The notes beneath the pieces were generated by a model. That model saw only the letters and a program-made list of their open reading frames with translations, was not told where the DNA came from and searched no databases. A DNA stretch of 9,689 nt from a virus (lineage: Duplodnaviria > Heunggongvirae > Uroviricota > Caudoviricetes), in the IMG/VR virus record IMGVR_UViG_3300026224_000016, one strand, 5' to 3'. The position numbers and the translations under genes are program-made. Below are positions 3,775 to 8,155 of the stretch, one piece after another (the stretch's first letter is position 1; each line of letters opens with the position of its first letter).

Positions 3775-3995
3775 ACGGCACCTCCCAGGCGTTTAAACAT
3801 TTTTCCGGACTGAAACGCCACCAGTGGGTAACTGATGGTGTAGTTACGCCCCAGTAATTCACACACGACTTTCTGGCTTTCGGTACTGACCAGGCAAACC
3901 CGCAGAACATGGCCGTTGCTGGTGGCAAACCACTGCCCCACACGGGGGCAACGGTTGTATCGGTGATACAGGGAATTAACGACGCGGCGAATCAT
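3771..3995 (-). CDS. hypothetical protein (74 aa)
   Basis: ATG at 3995 overlaps the stop of the upstream 220-aa gene (ATGA at 3992-3995), with a GGGAAG SD-like element 7 nt upstream. The track's longer start at 4010 has no SD. No family recognised. Confidence 0.5.
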   Translation of the reverse strand: MIRRVVNSLYHRYNRCPRVGQWFATSNGHVLRVCLVSTESQKVVCELLGRNYTISYPLVAFQSGKMFKRLGGAV

Positions 3996-4654
3996 GGGCG
4001 CACTTCCCATTGATTACGGCGGAAAGCAGTGTGATTCAGGCTGGTTTCAGCCTCATGGAATGCTTCAATGCAGCTCTCGTAGTACCGCATTGTGCGCAGA
4101 CTTAACCCAAGCTGAAGCATCATCAGACCATCAAGGGTGATGTAATAACCACGCAGGGAATCGCCATACACGTGGTAAGTACCCGGAATGAAATTACGGG
4201 AGAAGAATTCACGTGAGCAGTTCAGATACTCGATTTTGTCGACGATGTTCTGGTGCATGCGCTTAAAGTGGCAGGCAACATGCAGGGAGAAAATAACAGC
4301 TTTGCCGTTGACGACTTCGATTTTCAGGTATGGGGAAGTTGGGACTGTAGCCATGATGGCAGCCTCCGTATGCAATGGATAACTTCCACCACCGGAAACG
4401 CCAATTTCACTGGTGGTGAACTGAACGGGGTTGGCGTAACCGGCGCATACGGAAACCGGCGCATCTTTCGATGCCCCCGCCCAGCCCACCATAATCTGGA
4501 TGTGAGCAAATGCGGACGATAAAAAAGACGCTGGCGCGTCGTATATCGCCGTATGCAATTCCAGGACGCCAATCCCGGCACCCGCTTTATAAGGTGCCAG
4601 AACAGTGTAACGTCCCGAAATTGCAGAATCAATATTTAGGCTTGAAACATTCAT
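3992..4654 (-). CDS. hypothetical protein (220 aa)
   Basis: Long ORF with protein-like composition, co-oriented with and coupled into the replication operon. Weak or absent SD upstream of ATG 4654. No motif recognised. Confidence 0.6.
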   Translation of the reverse strand: MNVSSLNIDSAISGRYTVLAPYKAGAGIGVLELHTAIYDAPASFLSSAFAHIQIMVGWAGASKDAPVSVCAGYANPVQFTTSEIGVSGGGSYPLHTEAAIMATVPTSPYLKIEVVNGKAVIFSLHVACHFKRMHQNIVDKIEYLNCSREFFSRNFIPGTYHVYGDSLRGYYITLDGLMMLQLGLSLRTMRYYESCIEAFHEAETSLNHTAFRRNQWEVRP

Positions 4655-4757: not shown

Positions 4758-5464
4758 CACCGCTGCCAACCAATAACCTGAAATAACCCCATTTTCGGGT
4801 GATACCAGCGAGTCCCTCGCGGTTCTGCTTCCTCCATAACCCGATAAAAAGCAGCCATAAACGGTTCCACAGCAACAATTGCGCGACGTGACAACAATCC
4901 GTCCGGCGTCATGAACTCATGGGTGTCTGTAGGAATTTGATAGGCGTTCACCAGATTGCGGCATTTATCATCTGACAAACCGGTTTTTGCTTTCAGTTGG
5001 CGATATCCGGCATAGCCCTCACGAATGGTGCCCTTTTTGATTTGCTCAACTGTTTCGGCAACATGGCTGACTTTTTCTTCCACCTGAGTGATCCGTTTCT
5101 GCTGGCGAACAGCTTCAAGAGCCATCGCTGCAACCATTTCGATTTCGCTCATTGGCTTACGGATCTGTTCTTCCAGTTCGCGCCAGCGATCTACCAGGCG
5201 AGCAGTGAATTCAGGACAGAGCTGTGCGACGACAATGATGCTGTCGCGCTTACCTTGTTCTCCTTCAAACAGGTAATGCTCATATTGAACTTTAAAACCT
5301 AAGTTATTGATTCTTTCGGAAACCTCAATTTGAGGAGACCGGACAACGCCACCTTTGGCTAATGTTTCAATAGTGCGTTTCACATTGTCATGACGTTTAC
5401 CCACCAGCTCTGCGATTTCAACGCTGGTCATGGATACTTTGTCGTTAAAAATTGCAGCGTTCAT
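4757..5464 (-). CDS. rha: Rha-family phage regulatory protein / antirepressor-like (235 aa)
   Basis: N-terminal segment MTSVEIAELVGKRHDNVKRTIETL matches the characteristic Rha-family N-terminal motif. Start set to ATG 5464 (SD AAAGAGG about 7 nt upstream) rather than the track's 5488. Confidence 0.75.
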   Translation of the reverse strand: MNAAIFNDKVSMTSVEIAELVGKRHDNVKRTIETLAKGGVVRSPQIEVSERINNLGFKVQYEHYLFEGEQGKRDSIIVVAQLCPEFTARLVDRWRELEEQIRKPMSEIEMVAAMALEAVRQQKRITQVEEKVSHVAETVEQIKKGTIREGYAGYRQLKAKTGLSDDKCRNLVNAYQIPTDTHEFMTPDGLLSRRAIVAVEPFMAAFYRVMEEAEPRGTRWYHPKMGLFQVIGWQR

Positions 5465-5635: not shown

Positions 5636-5881
5636 ATGTCAAATACCCAACATCTAAAAGCGGCGGATCCCGTTTTACGCCTCAATGCACTTGAAACGGT
5701 TGTTCGGGCGATGCTGTCGAGCATGACACCCGAGCAAATAAACAAAGCGCGATTGATTGCTACTCGTGGTGCCCAATTAGCAGCCCTAGATCCATTGCTC
5801 ACTCCTGCGAATCGCGAAGATGTAGAGCACATTCAGGGGATGGTTGATTATTTATTCGCCCATATTCCTGATCAGATTTGA
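5636..5881 (+). CDS. hypothetical protein (81 aa), opposite in orientation to the surrounding early operon
   Basis: Near-ideal SD GGAGGA (5625-5630) 5 nt before ATG 5636. Helix-rich, Ala/Leu-rich soluble-looking product. A hairpin GCCGCC/GGCGGC (5914-5936) followed by a T-rich stretch lies about 30 nt after the stop. No family recognised. Confidence 0.5.
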   Translation: MSNTQHLKAADPVLRLNALETVVRAMLSSMTPEQINKARLIATRGAQLAALDPLLTPANREDVEHIQGMVDYLFAHIPDQI

Positions 5882-5962
5882 TTCTTTGAACCATAATTTC
5901 AGCGATACGAATGGCCGCCGCTTCGAGCCTGGCGGCTTCTTTATCTGCATAAGAGCTACCCA

Positions 5963-6208
5963 TCACTTCTCGTCCTCTGTGTGCGCTAAGCTTGGGTGTG
6001 GAAAAAGCTCTGGTAGGTCTGGACGAAATTCATACGCTTGGATCTTTCCGTCGACAGCTGCAACCAATAACGGCACAAATTCTGGTGAAATCTTGTTCTT
6101 GCAGTTCAACCAATCGCAGACTGTTGACTGGGCCTTTCCGCATCGCTTGGCTAAGGCTTGCTGACTTCCAAGAATCTCAATAGCTTTCTCTATGGCTTTA
6201 TGTTTCAT
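5963..6208 (-). CDS. cro: Cro-like HTH transcriptional regulator (81 aa)
   Basis: Small HTH protein (GSQQALAKRCGKAQSTVCDWLN) transcribed divergently from the cI-like repressor. Start set to ATG 6208 with SD AGGAGA 7 nt upstream; the track's start at 6259 would lie upstream of the predicted promoter. Confidence 0.75.
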   Translation of the reverse strand: MKHKAIEKAIEILGSQQALAKRCGKAQSTVCDWLNCKNKISPEFVPLLVAAVDGKIQAYEFRPDLPELFPHPSLAHTEDEK

Positions 6209-6230
6209 AATCGCATCTCCTATTGAACGC

Positions 6231-6259
6231 ATAATAACAACAGGAAAAGCGATATTCAA
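6231..6259 (-). promoter_or_regulatory. candidate PR-like sigma70 promoter driving cro and the early operon
   Basis: Read on the minus strand: -35 TTGAAT (plus coordinates 6259-6254), 17-nt spacer, -10 TATTAT (6236-6231), placing the transcript start about 15-25 nt upstream of the cro ATG. Confidence 0.5.
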
Positions 6260-6277
6260 CGTTAAACCTAGAACATT

Positions 6278-6293
6278 TATCGGAAAGCCGATA
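6278..6293. promoter_or_regulatory. 16-bp palindrome TATCGGAAAGCCGATA in the cro-cI intergenic region; candidate operator
   Basis: Inverted repeat TATCGG-N4-CCGATA read directly, lying between the divergent cro and cI starts, where lambdoid OR operators occur. Confidence 0.45.
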
Positions 6294-6327
6294 GACTAGC
6301 CAGGATAGAGAGGGGAGGAAAATCGCA

Positions 6328-7020
6328 ATGACATTTTCAGAACGACTTGATTTAGCTATGCGCAACGCAAAATTTACGCAAGGTAGGCTGGCCAAAGAAG
6401 TGGGTATGGCTCAGTCCAGTGTCAATCAACTACTTAACAAAGCCAACGGTTCCAGAAAAACAGTCGAAATAGCAAAAGTTTTGGGCGTTAACCCGGAATG
6501 GCTCGCATCGGGTGTTGGCCCAATGGAAATCGTGACCTCTGCAGACTCACACCAAATACGTAACATTTCTGAAGATTGGGTTACTGATTCGTATGTCGTG
6601 GATGTTTTAGACATCAGATATAGTTGCGGACCTGGTAGTTATAACTCTGATTTTCCTGACATTGTCAGATCTATAGCGATAGAACCAGGATACGCATCAA
6701 GAGTTTTTGGCGGCAGGCCAGCATCAGCAATCAAAGCAATAAACGCCCACGGCGACAGTATGAAAGGCACAATAGACCCTGAAGACTTGGTATTTGTAGA
6801 TGTATCAGTTCGCACATTTAATGGTGATGGTATATACGCCTTTACATACTCTGGAACATCGCACATCAAAAGACTTCAAAAAATCAAAGATACTCTAACG
6901 GTGATATCTGACAACCCAGCTTACAAGGATTGGGCTATCGAACCGGAAGACTTCGAACAACTTCACATTGACGGAAAAGTAATTGTCAGTTGGCCCATGA
7001 CACTACACCGTTTTGCATAA
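6328..7020 (+). CDS. cI: CI-like prophage repressor: N-terminal XRE-type HTH plus C-terminal LexA/S24 autopeptidase domain (230 aa)
   Basis: HTH FTQGRLAKEVGMAQSSVNQLLN. S24 catalytic signatures: Ser in AHGDSMKG and Lys in HIKRLQK. SD GGAGG 9 nt before ATG 6328. Divergent from cro. Confidence 0.9.
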   Translation: MTFSERLDLAMRNAKFTQGRLAKEVGMAQSSVNQLLNKANGSRKTVEIAKVLGVNPEWLASGVGPMEIVTSADSHQIRNISEDWVTDSYVVDVLDIRYSCGPGSYNSDFPDIVRSIAIEPGYASRVFGGRPASAIKAINAHGDSMKGTIDPEDLVFVDVSVRTFNGDGIYAFTYSGTSHIKRLQKIKDTLTVISDNPAYKDWAIEPEDFEQLHIDGKVIVSWPMTLHRFA

Positions 7021-7038: not shown

Positions 7039-7064
7039 GCCCACTCTTAAGTGGGCTTTTTTTT
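7039..7064 (+). terminator. rho-independent terminator downstream of cI
   Basis: Stem GCCCACT (7039-7045) / AGTGGGC (7050-7056), loop CTTA, followed by eight T residues (7057-7064), 19 nt after the cI stop. Confidence 0.8.
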
Positions 7065-7085
7065 GGAAAAAAATCGATAAACCGA

Positions 7086-7114
7086 TTGACAGACAAAATC
7101 GGCAAACCTATTAT
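7086..7114 (+). promoter_or_regulatory. sigma70-like promoter for the accessory cassette, with flanking repeats
   Basis: -35 TTGACA (7086-7091), 17-nt spacer, -10 TATTAT (7109-7114). Direct repeats AAATCGATAAACC (7071-7083) and AAATCGGCAAACC (7096-7108) flank the -35, and CCGATT (7082-7087) / AATCGG (7096-7101) form an inverted pair. Confidence 0.55.
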
Positions 7115-7163
7115 CATGGCATAGGTATCGAACTCACCAAAGCAATTATAGAGGATGAGAAAA

Positions 7164-7661
7164 ATGTCATCGTATATGGGGTTACCAACAAATCAGCACG
7201 ATGCTCTTGAGAATATTCAACTCTTAGTAGGGGCTGGTGCACTACTGTATAGCAGCAATAATCCTGAGTTAATTGAACTTGCCAGCTCCATCCTGGCTGT
7301 AACTCAAAAATACAGCCTCACCGCGTCGCGTTTATGCAAACAAAATTTAGCTATTAATTCCCAGAATCGGATTCGCACCCAACGCGAAGCCTGCGGCTTA
7401 ACAACCGCCGAACTCGCCAGGCTGCTCGATCTCGATGAAGAAATTATCATCCAGTGGGAGAGCGGAGAGTATGAACCAACTATCAGTATGCTTATCCCAC
7501 TGGCAAATATTCTTGGCTGCGATCCGATGTGGCTGTTAACTGGCGAAGTTACTCCTCCGGAGCAACCAAAAAGTGAGGAGCAGCAACACCATGACGCATC
7601 TCAACAAGTTTGCTCCTTATCTCGCGAAGCTCTTCTACGGAAGAACCAATACCAATGGTGA
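7164..7661 (+). CDS. HTH (XRE/Cro-C1-type) DNA-binding protein with an uncharacterised N-terminal domain (165 aa)
   Basis: C-terminal half has a classic XRE HTH (LTTAELARLLDLDEEIIIQWESGEYEPTISMLIPLANILGCDPMWLLTG). The roughly 75-aa N-terminal region matches nothing I recognise. Start chosen at ATG 7164 (SD GAGGA, 8-nt spacer). Confidence 0.7.
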   Translation: MSSYMGLPTNQHDALENIQLLVGAGALLYSSNNPELIELASSILAVTQKYSLTASRLCKQNLAINSQNRIRTQREACGLTTAELARLLDLDEEIIIQWESGEYEPTISMLIPLANILGCDPMWLLTGEVTPPEQPKSEEQQHHDASQQVCSLSREALLRKNQYQW

Positions 7662-7789
7662 CATAATCGCCGCTTCGCCCCTCAAGGTACATGCGAACAT
7701 TTTTATCAATCATTGCGGAAACAGTCTCAATATGAAAACACTTCTGAGACTCGCTATATAGCAGAACATATAAGTCAGCTGAGGAAGCC

Positions 7790-8155
7790 ATGAAAAAGTT
7801 CGAAAACATAACTGTTCTCCATGTTGATGACTTTGATTATACAAACCCGGAACCTCTCCCGGAGGTTGTAAAGGCAATAGATGTTGCCGATATAGTGATT
7901 AGAGGAAAGAGAATTGTCAAAAACAGGCTCGCATGCACTTCAGGAGCAATGACAAAAACAACCTCACAACAAGATGATTATGAAGGCATTTGTCTGGAGC
8001 CGGACTCATTTGCGGTAAATGTTTATCATTTATTGCATGCAACACAGGTATTACATATGTCCAGTAATCACGAAACAAAAACACTTGGCAGCGAAATTCT
8101 GAATTTTGCATGTGAATATGCAAAAGCTGCTGCCGAAAAAGAATTAGCGCAATAA
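7790..8155 (+). CDS. hypothetical protein (121 aa)
   Basis: ORF with SD GAGGAAG immediately upstream of ATG 7790, co-oriented with the HTH gene. No motif recognised. Confidence 0.6.
   Translation: MKKFENITVLHVDDFDYTNPEPLPEVVKAIDVADIVIRGKRIVKNRLACTSGAMTKTTSQQDDYEGICLEPDSFAVNVYHLLHATQVLHMSSNHETKTLGSEILNFACEYAKAAAEKELAQ

Follow-up and report, generated by a model that had tools for sequence, protein, structure and literature searches.

We identified two 16-bp dyads that overlap the promoter immediately downstream of the cI repressor gene in a 9,689-nucleotide stretch of viral DNA (the window). We propose, at a probability of roughly 0.85, that these dyads are OL1 and OL2, the operators through which CI and Cro would control the early leftward promoter PL. 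The assignment comes from sequence comparison, and binding by both proteins is predicted. The presence of the sites, their geometry, their statistics, their conservation and their covariation with repressor type were observed directly. A sequence-only reading of the same DNA had noticed repeats flanking this promoter and had offered two explanations: either the HTH protein encoded downstream has its own operator, or CI also controls the promoter. Our results support the second explanation through a dyad geometry shared with the cro-cI region, conservation of the half-sites and a motif that changes with the repressor type.

The whole window comes from a phiP27-like lambdoid prophage of Escherichia coli and comprises its immunity and early region. 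The 1.8 kb around the repeats matched 25 of 5,426 complete E. coli genomes at 92-99% identity, and the immunity type with this cI was found on 22 IMG/VR contigs. Among deposited phages, the match to the region around the repeats was limited to the HTH-domain part of one gene, and CI identity did not exceed 60% for any phage in that collection. The minus strand carries a DnaB-like replication gene (203-1633) and a DnaC-like replication gene (1591-2481). Ash and Rha regulator genes, recognized by family search, lie between these and a cro-like gene. The cro-like gene (5963-6210, minus strand) codes for 82 aa from an ATG at 6210 and matches Pfam YdaS_toxin (8e-15; a YdaS/Cro-type HTH) and phrog_35. 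Divergent from it, in the arrangement expected of a lambdoid OL/PL region, is a cI gene (6328-7020, plus strand) for a repressor with an N-terminal HTH and a C-terminal S24 LexA-like autopeptidase domain. This protein matches Peptidase_S24 (7.5e-17), HTH_19, HTH_3 and Phage_CI_repr in Pfam, and phrog_4 and phrog_6201 (CI-like repressor) among PHROGs. Its nearest solved structures are the 434 repressor for the N-terminal domain (E = 4e-4) and UmuD for the C-terminal domain. The S24 domain has catalytic residues Ser144 and Lys181, and Cys100-Gly101 is a candidate cleavage site. An intrinsic terminator of cI (GCCCACT-cttA-AGTGGGC followed by T8; 7039-7064, plus strand) lies after the gene, and its stem is retained with an altered loop and stem top in loci L003, L004 and L029-L031.

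Several features on the cro side of this region were observed along the way. Rfam placed a C4 antisense RNA (RF01695, 80.5 bits; 4409-4496, minus strand) and isrK (RF01394, 61.8 bits; 4521-4597, minus strand) within a mechanically called 'Ash family' ORF at 3992-4654. The two RNAs suggest that an antirepressor-type gene downstream of PR is under antisense-RNA control like that of P1/P7 immI, which if true would be a second immunity layer. A small plus-strand ORF (5636-5881) is convergent with cro, and a GC-rich hairpin (5917-5936) separates the two. L001 and L003 have a hypothetical protein here, with differing lengths and alleles. The ORF gave no family match in Pfam or PHROG, and it looks like a small gene inserted between cro and the Rha gene. 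One 24-kb viral contig (IMGVR_UViG_2681813321_000026; loci L018 and L022) carries two copies of this cI allele ~10 kb apart, which could reflect tandem same-immunity prophages or an assembly artefact.

The direct repeats of the sequence-only reading, AAATCGATAAACC (7071-7083) and AAATCGGCAAACC (7096-7108), are in place and identical at 11 of 13 positions. A repeat search extended them to 18 nt (7070-7087 and 7095-7112, 83% identity, spacing 25). They are best described as two 16-bp dyads that lie 25 bp apart, centre to centre. The promoter-distal dyad, which we designate OL2 (AATCGATAAACCGATT = AATCGA-TAAA-CCGATT, 7072-7087), is an exact ATCG-N6-CGAT dyad. The promoter-proximal dyad, OL1 (AATCGGCAAACCTATT = AATCGG-CAAA-CCTATT, 7097-7112), matches the consensus WATMGG-N4-CCKATW with 0 mismatches. 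Both share a 6+4+6 geometry with the cro-cI intergenic palindrome TATCGGAAAGCCGATA (TATCGG-AAAG-CCGATA), which we found at 6278-6293, as the sequence-only reading had stated. The sequence-only reading had also paired CCGATT with AATCGG across the -35. The two arms are present (7082-7087 and 7097-7102) and the CCGATT-N9-AATCGG inverted pair is real, but it is a by-product of the right half of one dyad standing next to the left half of the following one. We rejected this N9-spaced pair as a functional unit because its arms belong to different 16-bp dyads, each with the 4-bp centre of the cro-cI palindrome.

The two dyads sit on a strong promoter match. TTGACA (7086-7091) and TATTAT (7109-7114), separated by a 17-nt spacer on the plus strand, agree with 11 of 12 consensus positions. 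This PL-type early leftward promoter (7086-7114) was the best found between 5500 and 8300 in a promoter scan, and it is kept in all homologues. OL2 and the -35 share 2 nt, the last of the dyad and the first of the hexamer, and the final 4 nt of OL1 overlap the -10, so that the sites overlap both elements of a promoter that leads away from cI towards the early-left genes and on to xis and int. All genes downstream of the promoter in L001, a near-identical locus, are co-oriented and end at an excisionase and an integrase. Because the genes are co-oriented to xis and int, the promoter has the position and orientation of lambda PL and is not the promoter of an inserted cassette. The word 'cassette' in the sequence-only reading is therefore a misnomer, and the promoter heads an early-left operon. 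Two candidates for a further left site were rejected. A dyad at 7107-7131 (ACCTAT...ATAGGT, TATCGA) is not conserved, with ATAAGT or ATAAAT in relatives, and the position of an OL3 25 bp upstream of OL2 is occupied by the terminator T-run and has no consensus match.

We asked how often such sites arise by chance. The 5-mer ATCGG/CCGAT is present in 19 copies, with 18.3 ± 4.1 expected, and by the frequency check that had been suggested for it the half-site alone is uninformative. This background frequency favors a reading in which short AT-rich repeats lie near a promoter by coincidence and have no function. Ungapped comparisons favor it as well: when the best 14-nt windows of OR and OL were compared across the five repressor types described below, identities of 11-13 within a type barely exceeded the 10-12 found between types, although this comparison is too insensitive in AT-rich DNA and we replaced it with counts of type-specific motifs. 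The complete dyad argues against coincidence. ATCG-N6-CGAT occurs exactly twice in the 9689 bp (6279 and 7073), where 0.11 copies would be expected. Each copy falls in a regulatory region, and 0 of 200 shuffled sequences reached two. Allowing up to one mismatch, WATMGG-N4-CCKATW has four matches (6209, 6278, 7072 and 7097) against 0.19 expected, and 0 of 500 shuffles reached four; this second statistic is partly circular because the consensus was derived from the same sites, whereas the ATCG-N6-CGAT statistic is not. All four consensus matches fall within the two regulatory regions. A consensus search of six further loci, including the 13.7-kb L001, likewise matched just these four or five sites and no others.

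The conservation of the sites was analyzed in 27 homologous sequences (20 distinct) from E. coli genomes and IMG/VR contigs that carry the same cI allele (89-100% protein identity). Across the 20 distinct sequences, the OL half-sites had 0.21 variants per column, compared to 2.75 for the central 4 bp and 6.3 for the 9 bp between the dyads. OL2 is invariant but for one central base. The single half-site polymorphism, C7100A, converts OL1 to the perfect palindrome AATAGG-N4-CCTATT in L003, L004 and L029-L031, and the same C/A alternative recurs in OR2 and OR3 of relatives. Conserved half-sites around a variable centre, together with symmetric variants, form the pattern that would be expected of sites read by a dimeric HTH protein. 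Half-sites that persist amid hypervariable surroundings, a symmetric variant and a layout shared with a related CI type (below) all stand against coincidence, which we consider extremely improbable.

The 6-nt patch between the PL -35 and OL1 (7091-7096) is itself hypervariable, with 12 hexamers in ~35 loci. Phages with cI DNA differing at 0.005 of sites (0.5%) show 0.275 differences per site in this patch, and its alleles differ even where loci share identical cI DNA. The patch could be an unconstrained spacer, or it could tune PL strength or CI cooperativity.

The same consensus directed us to the right-hand operators, and we regard all of the OR assignments as tentative. The perfect palindrome TATCGGAAAGCCGATA lies on the cI side of the intergenic region (OR3-like, 6278-6293; dyad and consensus search). 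It is conserved in homologues, and the L031 version, TATCGGAATGCCTATA, has the C/A (G/T) alternative at the same half-site position. An OR2-like site, AACAGGAAAAGCGATA (6239-6254), falls within the PR spacer. It is weak here, with 2 mismatches, while the orthologous site in L004 and L029, AATAGGTAAATCGATA, has 1 mismatch. The OR1-like site, AATCGCATCTCCTATT (6209-6224), has 1 mismatch to the consensus. Relative to PR it spans approximately +1 to +16, a stretch that contains the cro SD and the initial base of the ATG. It is invariant in 20 homologues; because it shares sequence with the cro SD, this conservation is ambiguous, with two possible causes. The equivalent site adjoining cro in L033 and L034 is AATCGCTCCTTCTATC. 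Centre-to-centre distances in OR are 30 and 39 bp, a less tidy arrangement than in OL, and the OL and OR sites lie 794-888 bp apart.

A promoter scan identified a PR-type promoter for cro on the minus strand (6231-6259), composed of TTGAAT (6259-6254), a 17-nt spacer and TG-n-TATTAT (6236-6231). By analogy, the perfect OR3-like palindrome towards cI stands where a weak PRM would be expected. A PRM candidate picked by eye (TAGAAC 6269-6274, 17 nt, TAGACT 6292-6297) fell below the scan threshold, and we do not claim it.

The gene directly downstream of PL provides a rival for the use of the repeats. It codes for an HTH_3 protein, XRE-type autoregulation is common, and the repeats could be the operator through which this protein regulates its own promoter. 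We examined this idea by comparing immunity types. Eighty IMG/VR loci with the HTH domain have at least five types of upstream repressor: type A (this window), type B (phiP27-like), type C (L120 and L096), type D (L107) and type E (L163). Type D differs by one residue in the HTH domain and the tail that follows it, and the other four types are identical there. All five types have a sigma-70-like promoter in the gap that separates the HTH gene from its upstream repressor gene, and the motif of each type's own cro-cI region recurs on the promoter, as immunity-specific operators should. The motifs, which were chosen by eye for counting, are ATMGG-N4-CCKAT (type A), AGTATCA (type B), ATCAAK (type C), TCAAnTATAnTTGA (type D) and TAGCA-N3-TGCTA (type E). 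Four of them (A, B, D and E) do not occur outside their own types; that of type C is short and less specific, but reaches its highest count in type C.

Five different sets of sites cannot be accounted for by a DNA-binding domain that stays the same behind all of them, but can be by a repressor that changes. The operator does not follow the HTH DNA-binding domain, for the same domain and recognition helix are found behind five sets of promoter repeats, with the A-type dyad missing from the other four. The dyad is also present in the cro-cI region, where CI and Cro act. Recognition helices read from sequence are AQSSVNQLLN in CI and AQSTVCDWLN in Cro, with AQS[ST]V..[LW]LN in common, and helix 3 of the HTH protein (LDEEIIIQWES) is unlike either. 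On the other side, inheritance of the sites always goes together with that of the HTH protein's N-terminal ~70 aa. Linkage within the five types cannot separate CI from this N-terminal domain because the ~70 aa also change with type. Neither the 5,426 E. coli genomes nor IMG/VR held this cI with another downstream gene or left promoter, and a search of genome contigs with CI returned only 4 distant relatives.

A sixth group, the L033-type loci with a related CI, separates the two and closes this loophole. The repressor is 48% identical to the one in the window, with the recognition helix QSSVNKLL where the window has QSSVNQLL, and its OR sites are AATCGC-N4-GCGATT. An OL-like pair, TATCGTTTAAGCGATT-(TTGATA)-...-AATCGCTTTAGCTATC-(AT), lies 1.3-2.2 kb downstream of cI. 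The pair has the 25-bp spacing and the -35 (TTGATA) and -10 overlaps seen in the window, and it is followed by a small arginine-rich ORF that is not an HTH gene. No relatives of the HTH protein were found in the L033-type loci. The other CI relatives that we retrieved each have their own 14-16-bp OR dyads with a 4-bp centre. The first explanation of the sequence-only reading, an operator belonging to the HTH protein, is hard to reconcile with one HTH domain behind five repeat sets and with the related CI's layout in front of a non-HTH gene, and we judge it very improbable.

In L033, the OL/PL-like pair and the ORF after it occupy 4951-5211, and L034-L037 have the same arrangement. The ORF codes for 48 aa (MVKNSASLATRAKRVRWKKH...) and could be an N-like antiterminator. 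Variable cargo genes fill the 1.3-2.2 kb between cI and the PL-like promoter in this type, which is the position of lambda rex.

The first gene of the PL operon (7164-7661, plus strand) codes for a 165-aa protein composed of an immunity-type-specific N-terminal domain and a conserved HTH_3 domain (Pfam, 2.8e-11). Its PHROG matches are phrog_4739 and phrog_4836 ('CII-like regulator'). A mosaic joint lies near 7372, at the domain boundary, and the section of the gene from ~7372 on (HTH domain and tail) recurs in phiP27 and in ~290 additional E. coli genomes. Each of the five repressor types has different N-terminal ~70-85 aa. Weak similarity (E = 0.002) links this part to ORF 7790-8155, in its C-terminal half, and phrog_4587 is matched by both. 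For the HTH protein and the ORFs that follow it, no specific function emerged from PADLOC, NCBIfam or Pfam: PADLOC returned generic HTH matches only, NCBIfam matches were all far under the cut-offs, and PHROGs assigned phage families of unknown function. Family matching of the proteins downstream of the promoter did not recover a known anti-phage defence or moron cassette.

Two further observations concern this gene and its neighborhood. In E. coli Z1323HEC0393, an IS3-family element (L005 3017-4273) truncates the HTH gene, leaving a prophage without an intact first PL gene. An 86-aa antisense ORF (7549-7809, minus strand) lies opposite the HTH gene's 3' end and the beginning of ORF 7790-8155. 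It had no family match in Pfam or PADLOC; a minus-strand CDS is annotated near this position in L004 and phiP27 (L09), but not in L001.

The makeup of the HTH protein raises the prospect of dual control, in which CI and Cro occupy the dyads and the HTH protein acts through its type-specific N-terminal domain, for example by contacting operator-bound CI/Cro or the leader. In keeping with this idea, each immunity type has its own N-terminal domain on an otherwise constant protein, and the mosaic joint is placed at the domain boundary. Recombination history alone also predicts a mosaic joint inside the first PL gene, and the imm21 substitution in lambda hybrids includes N. By eye, the leaders of the five types have no conserved feature, and the N-terminal domain had no function-assigning family match in Pfam, PHROG, NCBIfam or PADLOC. 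We consider dual control improbable. A specific version, which we likewise think unlikely, is that the HTH protein is a third immunity-specific regulator whose N-terminal domain docks on the cognate CI/Cro or on the operator complex at the OL sites. If this were true, the docking protein would add a layer to the lysis-lysogeny switch of phiP27-like phages, and selection might have tuned the hypervariable patch that separates the -35 from OL1 as part of it.

Our preferred reading, control of PL by CI and Cro at OL1 and OL2, leads to a simple model, drawn by analogy with lambda and 434. PL begins directly after the cI terminator and would drive the HTH protein, several unknown ORFs and then xis and int. 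In the lysogen, CI dimers would occupy OL1 and OL2, probably cooperatively given the 25-bp centre-to-centre spacing, and OL-bound CI would cover the -10 and -35 and exclude RNA polymerase. CI would also bind up to three cro-cI dyads (6209-6224, 6239-6254 and 6278-6293), keeping PR shut and regulating its own expression. Looping between OL and OR over ~0.8-0.9 kb may be possible. SOS-induced self-cleavage of CI, predicted from its S24 residues (Cys100-Gly101, Ser144/Lys181), would derepress PL and PR. CI binding, cooperativity, repression and looping are all predicted steps of this model. The Cro proteins of other lambdoid phages use the same operators as CI.

We compared this arrangement to well-studied immunity regions. 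Lambda likewise has CI/Cro dyads in the cro-cI region (OR1/OR2-PR) and at a second early promoter located beyond cI, towards int (OL1/OL2-PL). In both systems the distal site reaches or runs into the start of the -35, the proximal site shares positions with the -10, and CI has a self-cleaving S24 domain. Neighboring lambda operators are ~24-25 bp apart, centre to centre. The operators differ in that they have no sequence similarity and are 16 bp (6+4+6) here and 17 bp in lambda. The lambda paradigm of three tandem operators per region does not extend to our left promoter, where there are two dyads only, and the OR spacing is irregular here (30 and 39 bp). Finally, PL lies directly after the cI terminator without rex-like genes, and its first gene codes for the HTH protein rather than N.

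The dyads also resemble those of phage 434, in which conserved outer positions flank a variable centre. The 434 operators are 14 bp long (ACAA-N6-TTGT), and the dyads described here have a conserved outer 4-5 bp (ATCG-N6-CGAT). The recognition helices of CI and Cro are similar to each other, as they are in 434. The sequence similarity to 434 is only marginal, other bases are recognized, and the C-terminal domain of our CI best matches UmuD. The Stx2 phage 933W has three right operators and two left operators (Tyler et al. 2004, as summarized in PMC8065619). The region described here is alike in having two left sites and up to three right sites, but the repressor is a different one and the operator sequences differ, and unlike our phage 933W carries N and the classical set of lambdoid early genes. 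Given the two-site OL of 933W, a three-site arrangement is not a defining property of this wider kind of operator region.

The closest known relative in gene order is the Stx2e phage phiP27 (L12-L11-L10), in which a cro-like gene, cI, a promoter, an HTH gene and early-left genes follow one another as they do here. For the L10 HTH domain, overall identity is 77% and rises to near-identity over the HTH motif, and phiP27 also has repeats common to its cro-cI region and the promoter upstream of L10. In contrast, the phiP27 cI allele is 36% identical over the HTH only, and the repeated motif is AGTATCA. The differences in cI allele and motif indicate a different immunity specificity.

The arrangement we describe is a textbook lambda-type OL/PL region in an experimentally unstudied immunity type, and it challenges nothing known about lambdoid regulation. 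A literature search did not find the operator strings of this immunity type, and reviews on SfIV and on STEC phages offered general remarks only. The type-specific N-terminal domain of the first PL product and the hypervariable patch at 7091-7096 are more unusual than the operators themselves. Our analysis assigns an operator consensus, WAT[C/A]GG-N4-CC[G/T]ATW, together with an OL/PL layout and a tentative OR layout, to an uncharacterized immunity type of phiP27-like E. coli prophages. The genes downstream of the promoter can be re-read as a putative CI-repressed early-left operon rather than a cassette expressed in the lysogen. The operator assignment helps with annotating prophages of this kind and with predicting hetero-immunity among them.
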